IMG/VR virus record: IMGVR_UViG_3300048576_000515
Span: 1 to 26,938 of that record
Length of the DNA: 26,938 nt
Direction: 5' to 3' (one strand)
DNA from: a virus
Lineage: Duplodnaviria > Caudoviricetes
Position 1 is the stretch's first letter. The number at the start of each line of letters is the position of its first letter. The translations under genes were made by a program, and so were the position numbers. Below, one piece after another: positions 2,684 through 26,938 of this stretch. A model generated the notes under the pieces. That model was not told the origin of the DNA. It made no database searches and saw nothing but the letters and a program-made list of their open reading frames with translations.

Positions 2684-3220
2684 ATGGCCCTTGTTATTGA
2701 GGACGGAAGCGGCGTTTCTGGGTCCAACTCCTTCGTGGATGTGGCCTACGCCGACGCCTACTTCGCCGGGGCTGGGCAAGCCGTCTGGGTCGGCGATGAT
2801 GTGGCGAAGGAAGCCGCTTTGATTCGCGCGGGGCGCTACCTGAACGGCCTCCGCTGGCAGGGATCGAAGTTCGATTTTCGCCATTCCATGTGCTGGCCCC
2901 GTTTTGGTGTTCCGGTCGCGGATATGGAAGGCTCAATTTCCCTCTACCCCTCTGGCTTTGGCTATGGCCTTTACTGGAACACCAACGAGGTTCCCGAGCC
3001 CGTCAAGCAAGCCCAATGCGAGGCCGCCCTGCGCTACCTCGCCGGCACCGAGATGCTGCCGGATCTGGAGCGCGGGGGCCAGGTGGTCATGGAGCGCGTG
3101 GACGTCATCACGACGCAGTACGCCAGCGGCGCGCCGGCCGGGACGCGGTTCCTGGCGGTTGAGGCGTTGTTGCGGCCGTTTCTCAAGTCGAGCGCCAGCG
3201 TGGATCTGGTACGTGGCTAG
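2684..3220 (+). CDS. Head-tail adaptor (DnaT-like family of phage head completion proteins)
   Basis: MALVIEDGSGVSGSNSFVDVAYADAYF start, KEAALIRA, WPR and VPEPVKQAQCEAA motifs. Confidence 0.8.
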   Translation: MALVIEDGSGVSGSNSFVDVAYADAYFAGAGQAVWVGDDVAKEAALIRAGRYLNGLRWQGSKFDFRHSMCWPRFGVPVADMEGSISLYPSGFGYGLYWNTNEVPEPVKQAQCEAALRYLAGTEMLPDLERGGQVVMERVDVITTQYASGAPAGTRFLAVEALLRPFLKSSASVDLVRG

Positions 3221-3756
3221 ATATGCACCCAGGTTTTACGATGCACGATACGATATATCGTAGAATGATCCACGCCAAACATGGCACCAAGGGGTCGGTA
3301 TCCGATTCCTTTCTGCACAAGTGTTCTAATTTTTCTAACATCGTCCTCATTCAGTATGGCACATCCGTGATCCTCTCCTATCTGGGGCGGGTGAAGCCCT
3401 GCTTTTACAGCGTGGCGCATATTCTCTTCCTGAGTTGCCCATTCAAGGTTGTCGGCTTTGTTGTTAAACCGATTGCCATCCTTATGGTTCACCTGACCTT
3501 TGGAATCTTTATTGTCAAGAAAGACAGATGCAACCACCCGCGCCACGCGATGAGTCTTAGCATTCCCATTTTTAGAAAGACTAACCTTCAGATATCTCTC
3601 GTTGCAAGCGAACTGCTTTATTATCTTGCCATGAACAAAAGCCATCCGGCCGGATGGACTTTTTTTAATGAATCTGTCCAACGACCGAATTTCGCCAAAG
3701 TTAGAGACTTCATACAGTCCTTCATATTCAACGACAGGCTTCCATTCTGTTTCCAT
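3217..3756 (-). CDS. NUMOD4-HNH homing endonuclease with C-terminal HTH
   Basis: WKPVVEYEGLYEVSNFGEIRSLDR (NUMOD4); HRVA...VNHKDGNRFNNKADNLEWATQEENMRHA (HNH); AT-rich; ATG at 3756 preferred over TTG at 3768. Confidence 0.92.
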   Translation of the reverse strand: METEWKPVVEYEGLYEVSNFGEIRSLDRFIKKSPSGRMAFVHGKIIKQFACNERYLKVSLSKNGNAKTHRVARVVASVFLDNKDSKGQVNHKDGNRFNNKADNLEWATQEENMRHAVKAGLHPPQIGEDHGCAILNEDDVRKIRTLVQKGIGYRPLGAMFGVDHSTIYRIVHRKTWVHI

Positions 3757-3785
3757 ATGCAACCCCAATCACACTGTTTGGCATA

Positions 3786-6218: not shown

Positions 6219-6307
6219 CCTTTCGCGGGTCGGATAGGGCGCGCGCCCGACAAGCGGAATCCCCGGCCGCTTCCGGCCCGCCAAACTCGGGGAAAGGGGA
6301 AAGAATC

Positions 6308-6694
6308 ATGGCTCTTAAGTTCTCTCTCAAGCCGAAGGAAAAGAACATCCGGATCCTGTCCGCCCCGGGCGTCGTCTGGAAAGTCGTGCCCATGACCTCA
6401 TCCGAGGATGCGGAGCTCGTCAAGAAATTCCAGGAGTACGATACCCGCGCCCGGGCCTATCTCGTTTCGGACGACATGGGCCTGCTCAAGGCCAGGGCCA
6501 TCCAGATCATTCGGGGGTGGGAAGGCCTGCCCGGGGACGAAACCGATGCCGACGGCAAACCGATGATGATCCCCTACACCACGTCCAACCTGGAGGCTCT
6601 GTGCGAGATGGCCACGCCCGTTATCTCCGAGGTCATCCTCGAGTCCCGCCGGGCTGACGCCTTGGTCGTGGAGGCCGCCGAAAAAAACTCCTAG
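6308..6694 (+). CDS. Tail assembly chaperone (gpG-like)
   Basis: True start MALKFSLK at 6308 after a purine-rich RBS; IIRGWEG motif; ends EAAEKNS over a slippery sequence. Confidence 0.8.
   Translation: MALKFSLKPKEKNIRILSAPGVVWKVVPMTSSEDAELVKKFQEYDTRARAYLVSDDMGLLKARAIQIIRGWEGLPGDETDADGKPMMIPYTTSNLEALCEMATPVISEVILESRRADALVVEAAEKNS
6682..6688 (+). other. -1 programmed ribosomal frameshift site (A AAA AAC)
   Basis: X XXY YYZ heptamer in the correct phase just before the TAG; the -1 frame is open from 6688 to 7119. Confidence 0.85.
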
Positions 6695-7119
6695 CCTGGG
6701 GTCGGTGGGACATCTGGAGCCTTGAAGGGGACCCATGCGATGCCTGTCGCGATCTCTATGAGGACGATGACCTTAGACCGCCATGTGGGGGGCATGAATG
6801 CCTGAGGCCTGATGACCTTTGGCCCGAGAATGTCACCCTATGGAAAATCTGGAAGATAGCGGATAAGCATGATCGGCCGACGCGAACGGAATTCATTGCG
6901 ACGATGGGGGCCGCCCAGTCCGTCTCCGTCCCGGCCAGGATCCCATCCCAGGCTATCGGGAGTCTCTGCGAGGTCTACGACGAATCCCTGGAGTCGTTCG
7001 AGCGAATATTGTGGCTCGAAAACAGGCTTTACCCGCTGATCCTGGAACGGTCGGAGCGGGACAGGGGGCAACAAGGAGACGGGGGTGGGGGCGGAAGCCC
7101 GTGGGGAGAGGAAGATTGA
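6688..7119 (+). CDS. Tail assembly chaperone gpT part (made as a G-T fusion)
   Basis: -1 frame reads LLAWGRWDIWSLEGDPCDACRDLYEDDDLRPPCGGHECLRPDDLWPENVTLWKIW... and joins track ORF 6904..7119; LWPEN..W motif. Confidence 0.8.
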   Translation, partial: LLAWGRWDIWSLEGDPCDACRDLYEDDDLRPPCGGHECLRPDDLWPENVTLWKIWKIADKHDRPTRTEFIATMGAAQSVSVPARIPSQAIGSLCEVYDESLESFERILWLENRLYPLILERSERDRGQQGDGGGGGSPWGEED

Positions 7120-7121
7120 AC

Positions 7122-7153
7122 AGGGGCCGGCGAGAGTCGGCCCCTTGTTGTTG
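7122..7153 (+). terminator. Intrinsic terminator-like hairpin after the tail chaperones
   Basis: AGGGGCCGGC-GAGA-GTCGGCCCCT followed by TGTTGTTG; the G-U pair and GNRA loop favour the + strand. Confidence 0.65.
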
Positions 7154-7164
7154 AACTCCCAGGA

Positions 7165-7243
7165 AAGGCGACGCCCACCCACGCGGGGCGTGACATGGGA
7201 CAGGGCGGATTCTCCGGGTCATCTCCGCTATCGCGGGGAACAA
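7165..7243 (-). CRISPR. CRISPR-like mini-unit: type I-E-like repeat, 20-21 nt spacer, degenerate second hairpin
   Basis: Minus strand 7243-7215 = TTGTTCCCCGCGATAGCGGAGATGACCCG, 23/29 identical to the E. coli I-E repeat GTGTTCCCCGCGCCAGCGGGGATAAACCG; then GAGAATCCGCCCTGTCCCAT; then GTCACGCCCCGCGTGGGTGGGCGTCGCC. The first repeat is well supported, the second is weak. Confidence 0.75.
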
Positions 7244-7247
7244 ATGG

Positions 7248-7667
7248 TCATTTCCCTGCGCGGGCGTCCAACACCTCACTAATCAGTTTTTGCAATGCGC
7301 GCAACCTGTCGCTGGTCATGCGCGGGATCTGCCGCTCGATGACGACGCCGTTGCCGACCGGAAACGGCTCGACGCCGCATCGCCCCCGCATGTCCCGCAC
7401 GGCCTCGCCGCTGCGGCCGAGCAGCTGGCCGACGCGGGCGTCGGTGTCCGTGCCGAGCAGGGCTACCTCGTGGTTTGTCCACTCGCTGTACGCCTCGCGC
7501 TCGGCCGGGGTGACGTGGCCCAGGGAGGCAGCCGGGATGTGCCAGTGGCCACGCTCGTCCTGTTCGGCGCCGGGGATTTTGCCGGCGGCGCACAGGCGGC
7601 GCACGCGCACGGCGGTCGTGCCGGCCTGTTTTGCGGCGGCGTGGGGGGAGAGGTGGGTGTCAGGCAT
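7248..7667 (-). CDS. HTH DNA-binding protein (excisionase/MerR-like HTH plus a second helical motif); Aca-like candidate
   Basis: LSPHAAAKQAGTTAVRVRRLCAAGKIPGA...GHWHIP; second motif WTNHEVALLGTDTDARVGQLLGRSGEAVRDMR; GGAGG RBS; overlaps the cas5 3' end by 8 nt. Confidence 0.8.
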   Translation of the reverse strand: MPDTHLSPHAAAKQAGTTAVRVRRLCAAGKIPGAEQDERGHWHIPAASLGHVTPAEREAYSEWTNHEVALLGTDTDARVGQLLGRSGEAVRDMRGRCGVEPFPVGNGVVIERQIPRMTSDRLRALQKLISEVLDARAGK

Positions 7668-8427
7668 GGATGCGCCTCCAGGTTTCCTCCCGAAAATTAC
7701 GCCCCTTGCCGGTCGGGAGACTCCAGCCGGTCAGGGTGGAGCCGTGTTCGTCGTCCCCTGTAAACGCGAACGCGTCGAGGAGTGTCTCGCGCAACCAAAA
7801 TTGCGGCCTGTTGTCGGGATGGTATTTGCCGCCCCAATCCCGGCGCAAATGCGCGTCCAGGGGATAGGCGCGCAGCGCGTCCACGGGGGTTTCGTGCTCC
7901 TCGATCCGAGGCGCAAGGGGAACGGCCAGGGCGCAGGATTTGCGCCCGAAAAACGGAACCCAGCGGGGGCGGCGCATGGCCTCGGCCAGGGTTTCGAGAG
8001 GAGGCGCGGCCGGACCGATGGTCCAGGCGGCCACCACGAACGGTGCGTTTTGCAGGTACTCGCGGCGGGACAAATTGGGATGGGGCCGTGTGGTCGGCGG
8101 GCGGTAGCAATGTTGCCGCGTGTAGGCCGCCAGCTCGTCCGCGCGGGTGAAAAGCGGTGTCAAATCCTTGCCCTCGGATGGAATTTGGATGGTGTGGAAA
8201 TCGGTCATGGGCGGCGCGGCGGGATTGATGGCCATAACGCACAGCCCCAGGTCGTCAGCCATGGCCGCCAGCTCCAGACGGCGGTCACGGCCGATGCCCA
8301 GGCAGGCTCCGAACAGGCCGATAAGCTGGGACGTGCGCGGGATTTTAGCGCTTGGTCGGATTTCGCCGTAGGCCTCGCGCCCCATGGCGGCCAGGGGCGC
8401 GTAGAGTTGGAACGTGAGGAATTGCAC
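7660..8427 (-). CDS. cas5e: Orphan type I-E CRISPR-associated Cas5 (CasD/Cas5e) homologue
   Basis: FQLYAPLAAMG..AYGEIRPSAKIPRTSQLIGLFGACLGI.RD, DFHTIQIP, TRADEL, LSRREYL and LAEAMRRPRWVPFFGRKSC match Cas5e blocks in order; 255 aa; GGAGG RBS with GTG start. Confidence 0.9.
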   Translation of the reverse strand: MQFLTFQLYAPLAAMGREAYGEIRPSAKIPRTSQLIGLFGACLGIGRDRRLELAAMADDLGLCVMAINPAAPPMTDFHTIQIPSEGKDLTPLFTRADELAAYTRQHCYRPPTTRPHPNLSRREYLQNAPFVVAAWTIGPAAPPLETLAEAMRRPRWVPFFGRKSCALAVPLAPRIEEHETPVDALRAYPLDAHLRRDWGGKYHPDNRPQFWLRETLLDAFAFTGDDEHGSTLTGWSLPTGKGRNFREETWRRIHA

Positions 8428-8439
8428 GGTGCGCCTCCG

Positions 8440-8856
8440 TCAGTTGGCGAGGTCGAGCGCGCCGTCGTCGTTGATTTCATAGGCCACGTCGCCGCCCTGG
8501 TCGCGCACGGCCTGGGCCAGGCGCGCCGTGCAGGGGCGCACGTACAGGCTGCCGATGGTTTCGCCGCCGATGCGGGCGCGGGGCGTCTCGACCTCGGCCT
8601 CGCCCTCGATCCATTGCCGGGCGTCCGCGATGGCGGCCTGCGCGCTGTTGCCGGTCCCGAACACGTTGTGGCCGCTCTGGTACACTGCGTACATGGTCGT
8701 TTCCTCCGGGTTTTGTGCGTTGGCGTCCCTGGCCAGGGCCTCGCGGACGGCGTTCTCACAGTATTTGGTTTTGCTCCAGCCGCCGCGCTTGGCGGCCGCG
8801 ATCTGGATTTGCTGGTGCTCCTCATCGGTGAGGTTGCGCAGGGTCATGATGGGCAT
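8440..8856 (-). CDS. Ribbon-helix-helix N-terminus fused to a small acidic domain (internal start at 8694); Acr/regulator candidate
   Basis: MPIMTLRNLTDEEHQQIQIAAAKRG resembles a FitA/Arc-like RHH; internal GGAGGAAACGACC-ATG gives an 84-aa product MYAVYQSGHNVFGTG... Confidence 0.7.
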   Translation of the reverse strand: MPIMTLRNLTDEEHQQIQIAAAKRGGWSKTKYCENAVREALARDANAQNPEETTMYAVYQSGHNVFGTGNSAQAAIADARQWIEGEAEVETPRARIGGETIGSLYVRPCTARLAQAVRDQGGDVAYEINDDGALDLAN

Positions 8857-8903
8857 GGCGTCCCCTCTCTTGTTTCCGGCTCGGGCCGATTCCCGTTTGC
8901 TGT

Positions 8904-8939
8904 TAGCTGCAATATATGCACTAGCCGCAATGCAGTCAA
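8904..8939 (-). promoter_or_regulatory. Sigma70-type promoter of the cas5 operon with overlapping direct repeats
   Basis: TTGACT (8939-8934), 17 nt, TATATT (8916-8911); TAGCTGCAAT (8904-8913) and TAGCCGCAAT (8922-8931) repeats. Confidence 0.75.
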
Positions 8940-9037
8940 GCCCAAACTTAAAATTTCCTCTATTTTTATACTCTATTAAACCAGGTAGTTACCATGGGCG
9001 TGCAGCGTAAGCGCGGGCCGGGGGGGCTATACCCACC

Positions 9038-9063
9038 AAAAAAGGCCGCTCTTCCGAGCGGCC
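9038..9063 (-). terminator. Intrinsic terminator of the antirepressor operon
   Basis: Minus strand GGCCGCTC-GGAA-GAGCGGCC-TTTTTT. Confidence 0.85.
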
Positions 9064-9089
9064 CATAACCTCTTATCCTCTCCCCTGCC

Positions 9090-9224
9090 CTACGCCGGCA
9101 CCACCTCCGGGGCCGGGGCGGCGTCATCCCGGTTGCCGGCTGTCTCCCGGCATATCACGCGGGCAAGCTCAAATATAGCCATGGCCAGGGCCTTTGCCTC
9201 GTCGGCATTTCGGGGGTCGCTCAT
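9090..9224 (-). CDS. 44-aa hypothetical protein (not in the ORF track)
   Basis: AGGAGG RBS then MSDPRNADEAKALAMAIFELARVICRETAGNRDDAAPAPEVVPA; fills the gap between the upstream stop and the terminator. Confidence 0.6.
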   Translation of the reverse strand: MSDPRNADEAKALAMAIFELARVICRETAGNRDDAAPAPEVVPA

Positions 9225-9227
9225 GGC

Positions 9228-9533
9228 CTACCTCCTCTCCAGCCCGAGGGCGCGTTCGAAATCGCGTTGCGCCGGTATTGGCTTCGGCTCGTCCTGTTCG
9301 GCCTCGTAGGCCTCAATTTCGCGCTGCGCTTCGGGGGTCGGTTCCCACCCCTCCTGGCAGGGCTTGGCGCTCCAGGCGACCGTGATGCTGACGTCGAGAG
9401 GCGTCATCCCGGCTCGGGCCATGCCCTCCCTGGCATTTTCCTCGGCCCCGGCACAGGTGCCCTTGGTCCAGTCGCGCTCGTTCTCGCACCATTCCGTGCA
9501 CATCGAGCAATTGGCGTACGTGGGGATGTTCAT
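9228..9533 (-). CDS. Small acidic Cys-containing hypothetical protein (101 aa)
   Basis: Likely start MNIPTYANCSMCTEWC 11 nt after the antirepressor stop; CxxC plus further Cys; Glu-rich. Confidence 0.65.
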   Translation of the reverse strand: MNIPTYANCSMCTEWCENERDWTKGTCAGAEENAREGMARAGMTPLDVSITVAWSAKPCQEGWEPTPEAQREIEAYEAEQDEPKPIPAQRDFERALGLERR

Positions 9534-9544
9534 GGTTACGCCCC

Positions 9545-10525
9545 CTACACCATCATCCTGGACAGCAAGCCGATGCCGTCCAGGGTTTCGTCCATCAGGC
9601 GCCATCCTGCCCACGCGGAGTCATGGGCATAGCCCAATGCCCTCAGAAATCGGGCCATGGCCACATCGGGCAAGTCCATGGCCCTGTGTGGGCCGCCAGC
9701 CAGAGCGTTCTCAACCTGCCGGCGCACATCAAAGGCTACCCCCTGAAAGCGGACGAAGATCTCTTCGAGGGCTTGCCTGGCTTGCTGGATCTTTTCAGGG
9801 GCAAGTCGTTGAATCGGCCGGCTCTCACGATACAAAGGCCGCTCCGGATCGAACGCCGGCGGCAACGCCTTGGGCTGCTCGCCGGCCGGCAGGGTCAGCT
9901 TCATTTCCATGGCCAGGATGTAGCTCACCACGTCCGGGTACACCGCCTGGGGAATCTCCTCGTACTTCGCCACCTGGAACTTGTTCTTCACCCGGCTCCA
10001 GGCTTCCTTGAAGGCCTTTGGGCGCAGTTCCGAGGGGTAGTGCGAAACCTTGGCCGCGATCAGGTTTTGGATCGAAAGGCGGGAAGAGGTGGAGAGGGTC
10101 GCGGGGAGGGCAGGGGCGGCGGGGGCTTGCTGGCGGTTAAAGTAATTCTCTTCCAGAAGCTCAAACACGTCCCAGGCCTTGTCCGTGTTCAACATCTTGG
10201 CGTGGCGGGCCGCTCCTCGTTCCGTCCAAAGGGTAAGCTCTCCTCCCGTTTTCGGGACGAGGTCGGATGAGTCCGAATTTCGGACGCATTCCTTGAGGGC
10301 GCGCAACTCCTCGCCGGAAACCTTGAAAAGGTGCTTGCCTTCGGTAAAGCGGTCGCGGTTGGCACGGTAGTTCTCGCGGATTCTGGTCTGCGTTGTGCCG
10401 TATACGGCCGAGAGCAACGCCGTTGTCAGAACGGGAACGTCCTTATAGAGAATGGGGGTCAGGGATTCGACGGGGATCACGGGATTGCCCGCGACGACGG
10501 GTTCGTTTAAGATAGCGGTAGCCAT
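9545..10525 (-). CDS. Phage antirepressor-like protein (ORF6N domain plus ORF6C/P22AR-like region)
   Basis: PVLTTALLSAVYGT...IRENYRANRDRFTEGKHLFKVSGEELRALK...LWTERGAARHAKMLNTDKAWDVFELLEENYF; WSRVKNKFQVAKYEEIP; ATG at 10525 follows GAGGTG. Confidence 0.88.
   Translation of the reverse strand: MATAILNEPVVAGNPVIPVESLTPILYKDVPVLTTALLSAVYGTTQTRIRENYRANRDRFTEGKHLFKVSGEELRALKECVRNSDSSDLVPKTGGELTLWTERGAARHAKMLNTDKAWDVFELLEENYFNRQQAPAAPALPATLSTSSRLSIQNLIAAKVSHYPSELRPKAFKEAWSRVKNKFQVAKYEEIPQAVYPDVVSYILAMEMKLTLPAGEQPKALPPAFDPERPLYRESRPIQRLAPEKIQQARQALEEIFVRFQGVAFDVRRQVENALAGGPHRAMDLPDVAMARFLRALGYAHDSAWAGWRLMDETLDGIGLLSRMMV
10485..10513 (+). promoter_or_regulatory. Antisense promoter inside the 5' end of the antirepressor gene
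   Basis: TTGCCC (10485-10490), 17 nt, TAAGAT (10508-10513). Confidence 0.6.
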
Positions 10526-10600
10526 AATCACACCTCGCACGTGTGGTTGCTGGTTAGGCCCTGGTCGGGTGTTCCACCACCCGGCTGGGGCTGTTTACTT
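10519..10600 (+). ncRNA. Putative sar-like antisense RNA covering the antirepressor start codon and RBS
   Basis: Promoter upstream; 14-bp stem 10558-10591 pairs fully only on the + strand (three G-U pairs) and is followed by TGTTTACTT. Confidence 0.6.
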
Positions 10601-10756
10601 CCTGCTTGCCTTCGCCTCTTCCTCCTCCAGAAGCTTTTGCAGGCATGCCACAAAAAGCCCCTTGATCGTGGTCTCCTTGTCCACGGCAAGCTGCTTAATT
10701 TTTTCGTGAAATTTCTTGGTTACACGGATCGTTATGGTGGTTTTCTCGCCGTCCAT
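10595..10756 (-). CDS. Arc-like ribbon-helix-helix repressor (53 aa)
   Basis: MDGEKTTITIRVTKKFHEKIKQLAVDKETTIKGLFVACLQKLL; directly upstream of the antirepressor; no SD, possibly leaderless. Confidence 0.75.
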   Translation of the reverse strand: MDGEKTTITIRVTKKFHEKIKQLAVDKETTIKGLFVACLQKLLEEEEAKASRK

Positions 10757-10763
10757 GGCTTCA

Positions 10764-10792
10764 GATATAATTATATCGTCATTACAAGTCAA
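10764..10792 (-). promoter_or_regulatory. Promoter/operator for the RHH-antirepressor operon
   Basis: TTGACT (10792-10787) upstream of an AT-rich -10 region that lies within the perfect palindrome GATATAATTATATC (10764-10777). Confidence 0.6.
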
Positions 10793-10824
10793 GCCTGTCC
10801 AGCGAAATTATTGCGGGTGTCAAG

Positions 10825-10858
10825 AAAAAAAGAAGGCCCCCGGATTTTCGGGAGCCTT
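10825..10858 (-). terminator. Intrinsic terminator of the AT-rich moron genes
   Basis: Minus strand AAGGCTCCCG-AAAATC-CGGGGGCCTT-CTTTTTTT. Confidence 0.85.
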
Positions 10859-10907
10859 GGGCTAGCTGAGCCAGGAGAAAGTCAACCTTGAAGAACCTTG
10901 ATGCAAC

Positions 10908-11822
10908 TTACCGTGATTCTTTCAAATCTTCCAGCATAAATTCAGCTTTTCTGACATATCCACGGTAAGCATTGCCTGTATAGTCTGTAACTATAGAACG
11001 CAGAAGCGACCTTGCCTCTTTAATGAGGCCGAATTTTATAAATATTCCAGATAAATTCAGTTTGACATTGATAACCTCCGGCGTCAACTCCTCTACACGT
11101 ATCCTGCAAAATTCAGCATCGTACTTCCCGACTACACCCTTTGCCATGTTGACTTGCCATTGGCCATAAATATTTGAACTTATTATATCAATATCATTCA
11201 ATATGCTTGCAAGAAGTTTTACGTCAATCAGCCCGTCTTGCTGGTTGCTCGCGGTTGAATAATACAGTTTGATTTTTTCAACCAAACTTTCCCCCTCTGC
11301 CTTGCAGTCTTCTTTTTTTACAACAGCATCTTTGCGAACATCGCCATGCCCTAAAGCGGTGCATATGCCGCTGAGAAGGGTAAAAAGAGGTTCTCCATTT
11401 TTAACCTCCATGACGGGGAATTTTCTATTGTTGTCAAAAACAAGAGCGCCTTTAGACGAAAAATATTTGTCTGTTAGAACATTCATTTTGTTGTTATCGC
11501 AATTGAAAACTATTTCTCCCACGCCATATGATACATTTTTCAAATCAACTGACGCTAAGTCACTATTTAGCTTAAGGCGGTCTCTCCCATCATTAGATAA
11601 ATTCAATTTCATCTTAACCTTGTATATTTTCCCGCCTACGTGTTCGACAGAACCTTTGTCGTAATATGTTTCCCCCGCGCGCTCTTTAAGCAAAGGTGTC
11701 CACATCTCTCGCTGTGCGATGCACTCAGATGTAATAGTCATGTGTATGCACGCAGCGACAAAAGTAACAAGCACAAACGCTGAAAACTGATTCAATGCAC
11801 TCGAAAAAATTAATTTTAGCAT
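10908..11822 (-). CDS. Exported/membrane-anchored hypothetical protein (adhesin-E-like N-terminal domain, helical C-terminus)
   Basis: Hydrophobic N-terminus; W..L....TYYDKGSV...FNC...KYFSSKG...IC pattern; AT-rich moron. Confidence 0.6.
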   Translation of the reverse strand: MLKLIFSSALNQFSAFVLVTFVAACIHMTITSECIAQREMWTPLLKERAGETYYDKGSVEHVGGKIYKVKMKLNLSNDGRDRLKLNSDLASVDLKNVSYGVGEIVFNCDNNKMNVLTDKYFSSKGALVFDNNRKFPVMEVKNGEPLFTLLSGICTALGHGDVRKDAVVKKEDCKAEGESLVEKIKLYYSTASNQQDGLIDVKLLASILNDIDIISSNIYGQWQVNMAKGVVGKYDAEFCRIRVEELTPEVINVKLNLSGIFIKFGLIKEARSLLRSIVTDYTGNAYRGYVRKAEFMLEDLKESR

Positions 11823-11824
11823 AC

Positions 11825-12670
11825 CTATAATCCGTCCTTCATCTTGAAGTAAGCTTGCATTTTGTGTACAACGGACTTTCCTATTCCGGGGATCTCTAGT
11901 ATCAAATTAACGTCAGCTGATTTTATGTCATCGATTGTATAGAAGCCTTTTTCAAAAAGTACTTTTGCCGTCTTTAGACCAACTCCAGGAATTTCTGTTA
12001 ATTTGTTATAAAAGAACGACTCCGGGAAATCAGAAATATTGTTCTTGAGTGTTTTTGCATACTCGCTATAAAGTTCATTCGAACAACAAAGATCGTTTAT
12101 TGCTTTAATTTTATCAAATACAAGTGAACTGCTTTCGACTATTTCACGAAATGAAATGAGAAACGGTAAGAACTTCGAACTATCCACAGGACCGACAGAC
12201 GAGGACGACATACATGGTTTCATCTCATCAATATCTACCCCTAGGGAGCGCCACGTTCTAGTTTTATGAATCCACATGCCGTCGCCTTGACTGCCTATAG
12301 ATGGCAATTTAGACGGTGGGCCTTTGTGAAATTCTCCATGGTGCCGGAGGACACATAATGGAGTCCTTAGTATTAGGTTGGCAAGGAATACATATCCAGT
12401 AAGGACGTCGCTATTTTCCTCAAAGTACTCATCGTTGTGCAAAAGTTCATATGAGGCGCGAAACTCATAAGAATTCCTGATAATCGGTACGGTTTCTCCT
12501 TCTACCTCGAAATCAAATAGTTCCTTTTTATATTTATTGTATTTCCCCTCTTCCTCAAGGACCCTTCTCCCCACAAGGCGAAGTACATCATGTCCAGTTG
12601 CCTGCGCCTCGCCGTTTTTTGGGGGGCTTTCTTTCCCCAGCAGCGACAAGAAGAACTGTTTTAAGCCCAT
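11825..12670 (-). CDS. Hypothetical protein with C-terminal tandem helix-hairpin-helix DNA-binding motifs
   Basis: LTEIPGVGLKTAKVL and ILEIPGIGKSVVHKM; AT-rich. Confidence 0.75.
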   Translation of the reverse strand: MGLKQFFLSLLGKESPPKNGEAQATGHDVLRLVGRRVLEEEGKYNKYKKELFDFEVEGETVPIIRNSYEFRASYELLHNDEYFEENSDVLTGYVFLANLILRTPLCVLRHHGEFHKGPPSKLPSIGSQGDGMWIHKTRTWRSLGVDIDEMKPCMSSSSVGPVDSSKFLPFLISFREIVESSSLVFDKIKAINDLCCSNELYSEYAKTLKNNISDFPESFFYNKLTEIPGVGLKTAKVLFEKGFYTIDDIKSADVNLILEIPGIGKSVVHKMQAYFKMKDGL

Positions 12671-12676
12671 GGCCTA

Positions 12677-12760
12677 TTACCTCGGCCTCCCGCACCCCGG
12701 ACAAACCTTCGCCTTATCCGACACTTCCCACCCGCAGTCGGGGCACTTGTGCAACGCCAT
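12677..12760 (-). CDS. 27-aa zinc-ribbon peptide (possibly a truncated gene)
   Basis: GGAGGG RBS; MALHKCPDCGWEVSDKAKVCPGCGRPR with two CPxCG motifs. Confidence 0.6.
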   Translation of the reverse strand: MALHKCPDCGWEVSDKAKVCPGCGRPR

Positions 12761-12847
12761 GACGCCCTCCCCCGTTTCGCCAAACCGATACCAGCGGACC
12801 GGGCTGAAGGGCAAGCGCGGGTCGTCGTGACCGGCGAGGAAGTCAAG

Positions 12848-12874
12848 AAAAAAAAGGCCCACGCGAGGCGGACC
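12848..12874 (-). terminator. Minus-strand intrinsic terminator insulating the island
   Basis: GGTCCGC-CTCGC-GTGGGCC-TTTTTTTT. Confidence 0.6.
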
Positions 12875-12981
12875 AATCTTGTCTTTTTTCTTAACCACTC
12901 CCTCTCCTCATATCTTTTCGCACCCATGTAATCGCGCATGCGCACAGCCAGGGGCACGGTCCAACGAACAAGGACCGCCCC

Positions 12982-24970: not shown

Positions 24971-26938
24971 ATGGCCATAATTTCCAAAGACTCGTTCACG
25001 GACGCGAATGCCACAACATTGACGTCGCATACCGCTGACAGTGGTTCAAAATGGACAAAGCATTCAGCATACGCTTCCACGGCTTCTATTTATTGGAATA
25101 GGGTTATCAGCCCAACGGCAACGAGTGTCGCCTACACTGGTTCACCAGCCGGGACGGATTATTCTGTTGAGGCTGATTTCGTAGTCAAGACCGCAGCGAG
25201 CACGCCGAAACTCCTCGCCAGGCTCGATACAAGCGCGTTTACTACGTATGCCGCCGAGTGGGACGGAGTAAACGGCGTCTGGTCGATTAAACGCTACAAT
25301 GCCGGATCGGCTACGTCGGGCGGAACGTATTCAATGACGGCTACCCCAGGGGCGAATGTTCATGCGAAACTGACCGTCTCTGGTTCCGGCGCTACTGTTA
25401 CAGTCACTCTCTACCTCAACGGCGTGCAAAGAATCCAATGGTCCGATACCAGCGGATCAAGGTTGACCTCGGCCGGTGTACCTGGAGTTTTCCAAAACGC
25501 TAGCAACTACATCACTGGTATTGCTATCGATAATTTTCTTTCAAAGGATGCCGGCTCATCTGATTCCATAGAAATAAACGAACTCAATGACTATCAGATA
25601 CTCCAGCGTGATTCAGCAGCCTCTAGTTCGTCTAACCTTACTATTCTAGGAACATATGAAGGGGCCCCGACTGGAATAGAGGCCAAGGTTGTATTAGCCT
25701 CCGACGGAACAACCGTTGTCAAGGATTGGACTGCGCTCGCATCGGCAACAATCGGAAACGGGTTCTTTTCTGGAACACTTTCCGAGGTAACAAATGGTGG
25801 GTGGTATAAAATTCTTGTCCGTTTTGCCAATGAGACAGACACCACCGCAACAGGGGCAAAAAGTTTCGGCGTTGGCATCTTGATTGGTACGACAGGCCAA
25901 AGCAACGTCGCAAACTATTTCGGCATTGCCGGGGGAACGCCAAACTCTTTGCTCCGCGTTTTTGACGCTGTAGGCTGGTACGCTCCCACAGGCCTTGGCG
26001 CGATTACAATGGGGAACAAAATCGTGTCTGAAACAGGGTTGCCTGTTGGCCTATTGAATTATGCCATATCTGGGACGGCTCTCTTGTCCGGGCTCGGCCC
26101 TGACTACTGGCTCAATACCGCCGCAACAGCCATGGCCGCGAAGTACAGGCATGGCATCATGGAATGTGGAGGAAAGATTGACTCAACCCTTTGGGTGCAA
26201 GGCGAGACCGAAGCAAAATATACGACTGCCATTTCAACGTCAATATACAAGGCCGGCCTTGATACTCTCTTTGGGTGGTTCAGAACTTACGCAAACGACG
26301 CTTCGCATCCTATCCACATCCAACCCTTGGCGACTGATACAGAGTCAAGTCTGGACAATACAAAATGGGAGAACATCAGGCTAGCGCAAATACAGGCTCT
26401 AGCTGATTCGAACAACTTCTTTGGTGGTTGCGGTTGGGATTTGGCGATGAGTGCCATCCACTACTCAAACTATACGACGATTTCCACAAGAGCCGCCCTG
26501 GCTATTTTACGTCGTCTCGGCGTCAAATCGTATGGGTATGGACCAAAAATCGTAAACGCAACACGAGTTTCGACTACCCTTTATGATATCAATCTTTCCC
26601 ATGACGGGGGGACTGATTTCACGCCTACGTCCGGAATCACAACTTTCGCGGTCTTCGACGAAAGCACTCCTGTGACGATCTCGTCAGCAGTGCGAACCGA
26701 TGCCAGCACGATCCGCTTGACCCTGGACACGGCCGTTGCATCTCCATCAATCTATTTTTGCTATGGCTATCTTCCAACGGTGTCGGCGGGCCCGCACGAC
26801 AACACGACAGACACGCTGCCGTTGCAGCCGTCAGGGCTGGTGACGATTGTCGACCCGACGCCGCCTCCCGCAACCGCCGACGACGGCATCATGGTCGGCA
26901 TCATGCGGGGGATTATGCGGGGGGTGATGGTGGGGTGA
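24971..26938 (+). CDS. Virion-associated SGNH/SASA (sialate O-acetylesterase-like) protein with N-terminal lectin-like beta domain
   Basis: GQSN (catalytic Ser), AISGT, WVQGETEA and a downstream IHY; Ser/Thr-rich beta N-terminus; lower GC than the core genes. Confidence 0.75.
   Translation: MAIISKDSFTDANATTLTSHTADSGSKWTKHSAYASTASIYWNRVISPTATSVAYTGSPAGTDYSVEADFVVKTAASTPKLLARLDTSAFTTYAAEWDGVNGVWSIKRYNAGSATSGGTYSMTATPGANVHAKLTVSGSGATVTVTLYLNGVQRIQWSDTSGSRLTSAGVPGVFQNASNYITGIAIDNFLSKDAGSSDSIEINELNDYQILQRDSAASSSSNLTILGTYEGAPTGIEAKVVLASDGTTVVKDWTALASATIGNGFFSGTLSEVTNGGWYKILVRFANETDTTATGAKSFGVGILIGTTGQSNVANYFGIAGGTPNSLLRVFDAVGWYAPTGLGAITMGNKIVSETGLPVGLLNYAISGTALLSGLGPDYWLNTAATAMAAKYRHGIMECGGKIDSTLWVQGETEAKYTTAISTSIYKAGLDTLFGWFRTYANDASHPIHIQPLATDTESSLDNTKWENIRLAQIQALADSNNFFGGCGWDLAMSAIHYSNYTTISTRAALAILRRLGVKSYGYGPKIVNATRVSTTLYDINLSHDGGTDFTPTSGITTFAVFDESTPVTISSAVRTDASTIRLTLDTAVASPSIYFCYGYLPTVSAGPHDNTTDTLPLQPSGLVTIVDPTPPPATADDGIMVGIMRGIMRGVMVG

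Follow-up and report, generated by a model that had tools for sequence, protein, structure and literature searches.

The window, i.e. the whole stretch of DNA that was analysed, is 26,938 nt long and is an entire virus record; its source contig is listed at 45,927 nt, of which 26,938 nt were examined and about 19 kb lie outside. Matches to PHROGs families were obtained for a scaffold, a major head protein, a head-tail adaptor, and head closure, neck and tail terminator proteins. The virion genes are followed by a cargo block on the minus strand and then by an SLT-domain protein of 2,144 aa that resembles a tape measure. Within the cargo block lies a cassette with a solitary type I-E cas5 gene, whose features are listed below from the promoter onwards (G001 is a metagenome bin that carries a related cassette and a type I-E system of its own).

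8911–8939, minus strand: sigma-70-type promoter with -35 and -10 elements, a 17-nt spacer and overlapping short repeated or palindromic motifs (candidate operator)
8440–8856, minus strand: 138-aa ORF, an RHH-like N-terminus in frame with an acidic 84-aa domain (X) of no known family
8440–8694, minus strand: domain X, with its own RBS and an ATG at 8694; candidate second anti-defence protein
7660–8427, minus strand: solo, full-length, divergent Cas5e; GTG start, 255 aa, no internal stops
7248–7667, minus strand: HTH_17-like protein of 139 aa, overlapping the cas5e stop; candidate Aca-like regulator
7215–7243, minus strand: solitary type I-E CRISPR-repeat-like unit, starting 4 bases past the HTH stop
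7192–7214, minus strand: 23-nt spacer-like guide, matching the cas11-stop/cas7-RBS/cas7-ATG junction of the G001 host behind an AAG PAM
7171–7191, minus strand: GC-rich hairpin, by folding, that closes the guide; either a terminator or a degenerate second repeat
7122–7145, no strand assigned: terminator-like hairpin between the plus-strand tail-chaperone genes and the minus-strand cassette

Virion genes 65–89% similar to those of the window were found in two prophages (G377 and G243) among the 25 genomes of the genus of G001, and the closest named homologue of the window Cas5e is from Solidesulfovibrio sp. C21. Together these point to a sulfate-reducing member of the Desulfovibrionaceae, probably a Solidesulfovibrio, as the host of the window phage. 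None of the 116 spacers of G001 or of the 314 spacers of six other arrays matched the window. Elsewhere in the window, a low-GC ORF between the head-tail adaptor and head closure genes (3217–3768) resembles, by eye, a NUMOD4/HNH homing endonuclease and had no Pfam match in the scan as submitted. At 6285–7119, a tail-chaperone-like ORF stops just past an A-run (approximately 6681–6688) and a second frame runs on, a possible programmed frameshift of the kind typical of tail chaperones. The minus strand at 9545–12898 holds more cargo, including an ORF6N anti-repressor-like gene, a zinc-ribbon membrane-like ORF and genes of low GC content (about 40%) whose products have Adhesin_E-like and helix-hairpin-helix domains. 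A 655-aa ORF with a SASA carbohydrate-esterase domain (24971–26938) stands at the end of the tail genes, and is a possible receptor-binding or capsule-modifying protein.

The gene at 7660–8427 is an intact, stand-alone type I-E cas5. Its product scores 138.1 bits against TIGR01868, the NCBIfam model for type I-E Cas5 (cut-off 68.95), and 83.3 bits against PF09704 from Pfam, and a sequence search of the PDB likewise assigns it to type I-E Cas5. The I-E model is its sole NCBIfam match, which places it outside type I-B Cas5, the family of AcrIB3 proper. The AF2 model (pLDDT 78.8) has E. coli Cas5e chains as its best Foldseek matches (E = 1e-15), and the protein is 40% identical to the operonic Cas5e of G001 across about 200 aa. 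A search by tblastn with seven Cas proteins of the G001 host found no other cas gene in the 26,938-nt window, so a hidden phage cas operon was rejected; no CRISPR array was found in the window either. Both cas7 and cas6 are neighbours at all 29 control Cas5e loci and neither is at the L010 copy; the window gene likewise lacks the cas7–cas6e operon setting. A GGAGG lies 7 nt before the start codon. The description in the earlier note of a full-length solo Cas5e with an intact frame and RBS is therefore borne out. The translational coupling that it also proposed exists on the downstream side, where cas5e and the HTH gene overlap by 8 nt; the upstream ORF stops 12 nt short of the cas5e start.

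The related cassette (L001, on G001:C372) adjoins DnaB in an otherwise unrelated phage, and three of its genes have 86% nucleotide identity to those of the window. A comparison of the two phages by blastn returned the cassette and its promoter as the only shared DNA, and the matching site in the G377 and G243 prophages is occupied by other small minus-strand genes. The promoter-RHH/X-cas5e-HTH segment is thus a unit of mobile cargo, and the site that it occupies is variable. Apart from the Cas5e homologue, no cas gene was found in the L001-bearing phage by tblastn (56.5 of 57.8 kb), and within the visible DNA the Cas5 homologue, like AcrIB3, sits on a mobile element and not in a CRISPR-cas locus. 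At the same site of the related prophages (L082:2062–3569 and L083:1499–2611), the small minus-strand ORFs are candidate anti-defence genes and include a shared 97-aa protein without family.

One promoter-like site was found within 6600–11000, with 0.8 expected by chance. The L001 promoter has the same hexamer layout with different spacer repeats, and the RHH/X ORF of L001 has a different N-terminus with X conserved. The promoter repeats (window 8911–8939, L001:9081–9109) and the RHH N-termini thus differ together, as expected for a co-varying operator and repressor. The match of the 138-aa ORF to PF22513 (FitA-like RHH) is sub-threshold (E = 0.019). Domain X, for which 2 homologues only were found, is probably also made alone: a GGAGG precedes its internal ATG in both the window and L001, and Solidesulfovibrio sp. 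C21 has an annotated stand-alone 84-aa X whose accession adjoins that of its cas5e. X is small and acidic like many Acrs and may be Acr-like. The HTH protein, a candidate Aca-like regulator, matches PF12728 below threshold (E = 0.008), and its gene is also present in L001 (dN/dS 0.225). Atlas matches for X and HTH were all below 0.9 and serve as leads only.

Three proteins are 59–86% identical to the window Cas5e, and the next ones are at most 45% identical. A profile search added two proteins, P0276 (WP_459932461.1, Fundidesulfovibrio butyratiphilus) and P0132, in which HTH_17 is a C-terminal domain fused to Cas5e. The HTH protein of the window is weakly similar to the P0132 tail (E = 0.001) and shows no similarity to that of P0276, so the fusions need not bear the window type of HTH. 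The tree that the earlier note had suggested as a check against operonic Cas5e (37 rows) separates a six-member clade from 23 operonic rows with a branch support of 100/99, both fusions being on long branches; a quick tree of a 72-row set gave a support of 97. Genomic context could be seen for two members of the clade, the window and L001. Between these two the dN/dS of cas5e is 0.18 (254 codons; bootstrap 95% CI 0.115–0.277), with regional values of 0.13 for the C-terminal 64 codons and 0.59 for 20 thumb-tip codons (few sites), and the reading frame is intact in clade members down to 40% identity. The window cas5e is therefore under purifying selection. This excludes neutral decay, which the earlier note had named as evidence against its own proposal; a pseudogene reading was rejected.

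The clade is rare in the material searched. One of 401 family genomes has a member (G001), and scans of viral contigs for the protein, alignments, fusions, HTH and repeat or guide patterns returned no clade member, one scan counting 2 matches without a locus. Of two metagenome scans, the first found nothing and the second 17 loci, each with at least one of cas8e, cas7 and cas6 adjoining; annotated phages and plasmids contained distant Cas5e only. A search of the 401 family and 5 genus genomes did not find the Fundidesulfovibrio fusion locus. Four wastewater runs (probably DNA) contain short identical pieces, which are uninformative on expression, and no RNA run was listed with the sequence among the sequencing runs.

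For the comparison with working Cas5e, 31 verified operonic controls were used (29 loci from the family, along with L002 and the host gene of G001; L003 was excluded as it has no cas6 match and L004 as very distant), together with a background set of 294 Cas5e proteins. The window protein keeps G16, R24, P30, S33, G37, G44, D76, H78, T79, R95, R122, Y124 and the GRKSC motif. Among these, R122 and T79 correspond to R108 and T87 of E. coli, which the accessible text of the review PMC5965380 describes as contacts of the handle and the thumb, with R108 as an essential residue. The view that all main Cas5e blocks are retained thus holds for residues 1–200 and fails for the C-terminal hairpin, where the RD...F-x-x-R motif is absent. 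The basic Pro-rich segment noticed earlier is real: the thumb, from R95 to R122, has 28 residues against 22 in the G001 host Cas5e, i.e. 6 more. Operonic thumbs have 22 residues in 18 of 31 cases (range 17–31), and one of the 31 exceeds the length seen in the window.

Several further positions separate the clade from the controls. A Thr found in 30/31 operonic proteins is Pro or Ala in 6/6 members, a Leu before GRKSC (31/31) is Phe or Ala in 6/6, and the Tyr corresponding to E. coli Y145 (26/31) is Phe in 5/6. The C-terminal divergence that had also been pointed out was located: an Asp present in 30/31 operonic proteins is Gly in all 4 unfused clade members, and an Arg present in 31/31 is Glu in 5/6. 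The alignment register in this region is anchored by P0276, an alternative register near residues 196–214 being less likely. The longer thumb and the loss of the near-invariant C-terminal Asp and Arg are clade-specific. In the available parts of PMC5965380 and PMC4787809, the Cas8e L1 helix fits into a pore formed by the Cas5e thumb, which also touches Cas7.6, so it is plausible that the changed thumb and C-terminus affect Cas8e or Cas7. The PLAAMG motif, read in the earlier note as a mark of a decoy, did not survive the comparison. Met at this position occurs in 36/294 background proteins (0/32 verified operonic ones, mostly from Desulfovibrionaceae), and PLAAMG itself is found verbatim at 8 of the 17 metagenome loci (about 4 distinct proteins), each with cas8e, cas7 and/or cas6 adjoining; it was rejected because operonic Cas5e carry it too.

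A repeat and a guide 3' of the operon are new relative to the earlier note. The repeat differs from the G001 host repeat at 7 of 29 positions and scores 22.8 bits with a PWM built from 13 repeats, the runner-up site in the window scoring 6.9; the score was reached in 2 of 200 shuffled windows (p of about 0.01 window-wide). Its hairpin has a z-score of -2.4, and Rfam gave no CRISPR match in the window. L001 has a homologous repeat at the equivalent place (26.6 bits). The lone repeat thus stands in viral DNA without an array and has the subtype of a I-E system, the host subtype being known for the L001 phage only. The 5' handles of the phage repeats differ from those of the host at positions -5/-4.

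The 23-nt sequence next to the repeat matches the cas11/cas7 junction of G001 in 17 of its first 18 nt. The match begins exactly after an AAG, at the first base past the repeat; the 11-nt seed is perfect, and the lone mismatch is at position 12, one of the bases flipped out by Cascade, whose target is described in the accessible text of PMC5965380 as kinked, with a base flipped out, at 6, 12 and 18. Among 53,840 18-mers of the window, the guide alone attains 17/18 when they are compared with the 297 AAG sites of the G001 operon. The cas7 start could be scored in 27 of 30 operons, with 15–17 matches out of 18 in 6 of them (behind AAG or AGG) and at most 10 in the other 21. Genome-wide, the junction is the top guide site in four of five host genomes and tied in the fifth; a reversed control pattern gave none. 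The guide is identical to the sense strand and would therefore pair with the template strand. The hairpin that closes it has a similar counterpart at the end of the L001 mini-array. As L001 carries other spacers, the cas7-junction guide is known from one case, and the viral-contig and family-genome searches turned up no second copy. Five family matches to a handle-plus-guide pattern were rejected because they lack the repeat hairpin.

The L001 cassette contains a type I-E repeat-32 nt-repeat unit. Upstream in that operon, an additional acidic ORF of 83 aa is followed by a solitary type I-C repeat (L001:9419–9450) which is the sole copy in G001, matches arrays in four other genomes of the genus and scores 22.8 bits against Rfam CRISPR-DR9, below the threshold of 45. 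As G001 has no I-C array, this repeat may act in other hosts. The L001 spacers have no good target in G001; spacer 1 loosely resembles a host regulatory spacer of G040. Spacer 1 also matches 7 of 8 seed bases in the L001 promoter itself, behind an AAG.

The type I-E system of G001 comprises cas3, cas8e, cas11, cas7, cas5e, cas6e and cas1. Four of its 116 spacers match its own cassette-bearing phage contig, with 0, 0, 2 and 3 mismatches and all at AAG; no spacer matched a shuffled version of this contig with fewer than 9 mismatches. This fixes the PAM as AAG and shows that a carrier of the cassette is under type I-E pressure. The spacers may reflect tolerated self-targeting or, since the phage contig in this bin has no visible host flank, immunity against a co-binned free phage. 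Past the second repeat of L001 (L001:11272–11303), host spacer 33 matches 25/32 positions, and both the PAM and the seven bases proximal to it are changed; this is a possible case of escape by replacement at the cassette edge.

A repeat-spacer-degenerate-repeat unit lies between cas3 and cas8e in 5 of the 7 host I-E regions examined (L007:14520–15200 in G001, L127, L128, L131 and L132). The five spacers partly match an AAG site just downstream, followed in 5/5 cases by a related hydrophobic ORF of 28–33 aa. These mini-arrays look like CreR/CreA-type self-regulation, possibly of a small protein toxin. If they are, the repression would be lost under an inhibitor that stops all binding to DNA. 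In the case of AcrIF24 this difficulty is overcome by Cracrs, according to the available text of 10.1101/2024.10.29.618823. The guide of the window resembles none of the five host CreR-like spacers, and its target is neither a cas nor a toxin promoter.

To judge from the sequence, the cassette combines a Cas5e in which the handle- and thumb-core residues are kept and the C-terminal hairpin is altered with an adjoining repeat and guide. We consider it likely, with a probability of roughly 0.65, that it is a mobile anti-CRISPR cassette which disarms the type I-E immunity of Desulfovibrionaceae hosts, the variant acting as a faulty Cascade subunit while the guide reduces the expression of cas7 and the genes after it. 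The operon would be transcribed early from one self-repressed promoter. The variant Cas5e would cap crRNA 5' handles and, like AcrIB3 in type I-B, displace the host Cas5e while Cascade is being assembled. The resulting Cascade would fail at interference, the likely cause being the longer thumb and the C-terminal changes, given that the thumb forms the Cas8e L1 pore and contacts Cas7.6. Host Cas6e would cut the phage repeat, and the short guide so released would park Cascade on the cas11/cas7 junction. With a partial match, the guide should bind without triggering Cas3, which would block transcription of cas7-cas5-cas6-cas1-cas2, lower the amount of host Cas5e and favour the phage copy.

The decoy idea of the earlier note is in this way supported in part: the exclusion of neutral decay, the separate clade, the mobile cassette with its repeat mimics, the related phage targeted by a I-E array and the AcrIB3 precedent speak for it, the altered Cas8e docking that it proposed may hold, and its PLAAMG mark is lost. 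Its suggestion that the decoy Cascade cannot recognise PAMs conflicts with the co-encoded guide, whose AAG PAM and perfect seed would call for a DNA-binding Cascade. We therefore lean slightly towards a variant complex that binds DNA without activating Cas3 (or that spares short-guide complexes) over a PAM-blind one, because the guide step needs PAM-dependent DNA binding. More specifically, the exchange of subunits might give a Cascade that reads PAMs and binds DNA without licensing Cas3 and is guided to the host cas7 start, any crRNA-repressed guard toxin staying repressed. This is tentative and, taken as a whole, rather doubtful; if true, immunity would be switched to a self-silencing CRISPRi device, and the variant would be, within the searchable literature, the first type I-E Cas-derived inhibitor and one working with its own guide RNA.

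The same observations can be read in other ways. The variant could be a working partner of the phage guides, with Cascade serving as a repressor of cas or guard-toxin promoters and the immune complexes left unharmed. In both cassettes seen, cas5e and the repeat travel jointly, and the handle-binding residues are kept with the Y145 equivalent changed to Phe; host loci also have mini-arrays of the CreR/CreA-like kind, whose AAG targets precede a small hydrophobic ORF, so that a blunt killing of Cascade could be costly. Against this, published Cracrs use the host Cas5 ('Cas5' is absent from the accessible text of 10.1101/2024.10.29.618823), the handle changes are small, and the absence of residues that are nearly invariant elsewhere is more suggestive of failure by design, which makes this explanation unlikely. 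The kept RNA-binding core and changed C-terminal hairpin would equally suit a protein that acts outside Cascade, binding crRNA 5' handles or free Cas7e/Cas8e and so preventing assembly, and Racr and AcrIE10 show that a block of assembly works (PMC10651486 and PMC13131331, as far as their available text goes). However, a full-length fold with an intact thumb has been maintained under selection, and in the accessible part of 10.1101/2023.06.24.545427 the nearest parallel, AcrIB3, is purified together with a Cascade that is complete in other respects; such a sponge is quite improbable.

It could also be asked whether cas5e has any anti-immunity role at all, or whether it is a captured gene or part of a phage CRISPR module in reduced form, X or the RNA being the active component. 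The rarity of the clade in family genomes and viral contigs and the Acr-like size and charge of X fit this, and X or the RNA could be the active inhibitor. The low dN/dS, the frame kept intact in distant members and the lack of any other cas gene in the window or in the searched part of the related phage speak against a mere passenger, which we regard as the least probable of these explanations.

As far as the accessible portions of the cited sources go, the window gene resembles AcrIB3 of Listeria (10.1101/2023.06.24.545427, PMC13131331) in that the latter is also a full-length Cas5 homologue, about 38–40% identical to the host subunit, which lies on mobile DNA away from cas operons and forms its own clade. 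AcrIB3 belongs to type I-B, whereas the window gene is of type I-E and comes from a probable Desulfovibrionaceae phage. AcrIB3 has lost an 18-residue Cas8-binding hook and gained a Cas7-contacting loop; no equivalent of the lost hook was identified in the window protein, which has the 6-residue longer thumb. AcrIB3 blocks target binding, while the window cassette co-encodes a PAM-dependent guide. The term 'I-E' is absent from the accessible text of the Katz preprint (10.1101/2023.06.24.545427), whose Table S3 holds 358 orphan viral cas genes that may include the window gene or its kin. No type I-E Cas5-derived inhibitor was found in literature listings and abstracts, subscription journals lying outside this search. 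With respect to operonic Cas5e/CasD (TIGR01868; PDB 4U7U, 4TVX), the fold, the family score, the N-terminal 200 residues and the R108 equivalent are shared, whereas the window protein stands alone, has a longer thumb, has lost the C-terminal Asp and Arg and has an HTH neighbour or, in the fusions, an HTH domain.

The RNA part of the cassette is closest to the Cracrs (CracrIE1, and CracrIF with AcrIF24; 10.1101/2024.10.29.618823), which likewise consist of a viral repeat-like unit with a short, partly matching spacer (24 nt in CracrIE1, 23 nt in the window), target the host cas locus behind a PAM and are co-encoded with a protein inhibitor. Cracrs target cas or toxin promoters by mimicry of the host CreR, and are processed by Cas6 to repress transcription, whereas the guide of the window is aimed at the cas11/cas7 junction, and its partner is a Cas5 homologue, neither 'Cas5' nor 'Desulfo' occurring in the main text of that preprint as available. 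Racrs and solitary repeat units (PMC10651486, available text) share the lone I-E repeat (in L001 also I-C) in a viral operon of small genes; Racrs inhibit by tying up Cas6/Cas7 in an aberrant subcomplex. The repeat of the window differs in that it closes the operon on the 3' side and runs into a spacer whose target is specific. In CasPR (10.64898/2026.02.23.707548, available text), a roadblock inside the operon also silences the downstream cas genes, but CasPRs are sequence-specific DNA-binding proteins, and the roadblock proposed here would be an RNA-guided Cascade.

Cas-derived inhibitors have been shown for type I-B and VI-A in Listeria, and a Cas5 counterpart for type I-E would bring in the Cascade that has been studied best, the structures of which make the mechanism directly testable. 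A natural Cas5e that allows binding and blocks cutting would let endogenous I-E systems be turned from cleavage to repression by a single gene. Its combination with a guide whose target lies within the host cas operon suggests a way for a phage to disarm Cascade without releasing the crRNA-guided self-regulation or guard toxins of which the host loci show signs. By analogy with these systems, the best reading of the cassette is an AcrIB3-like faulty Cas5e together with a Cracr-like guide, in type I-E and with an unusual, intragenic target.
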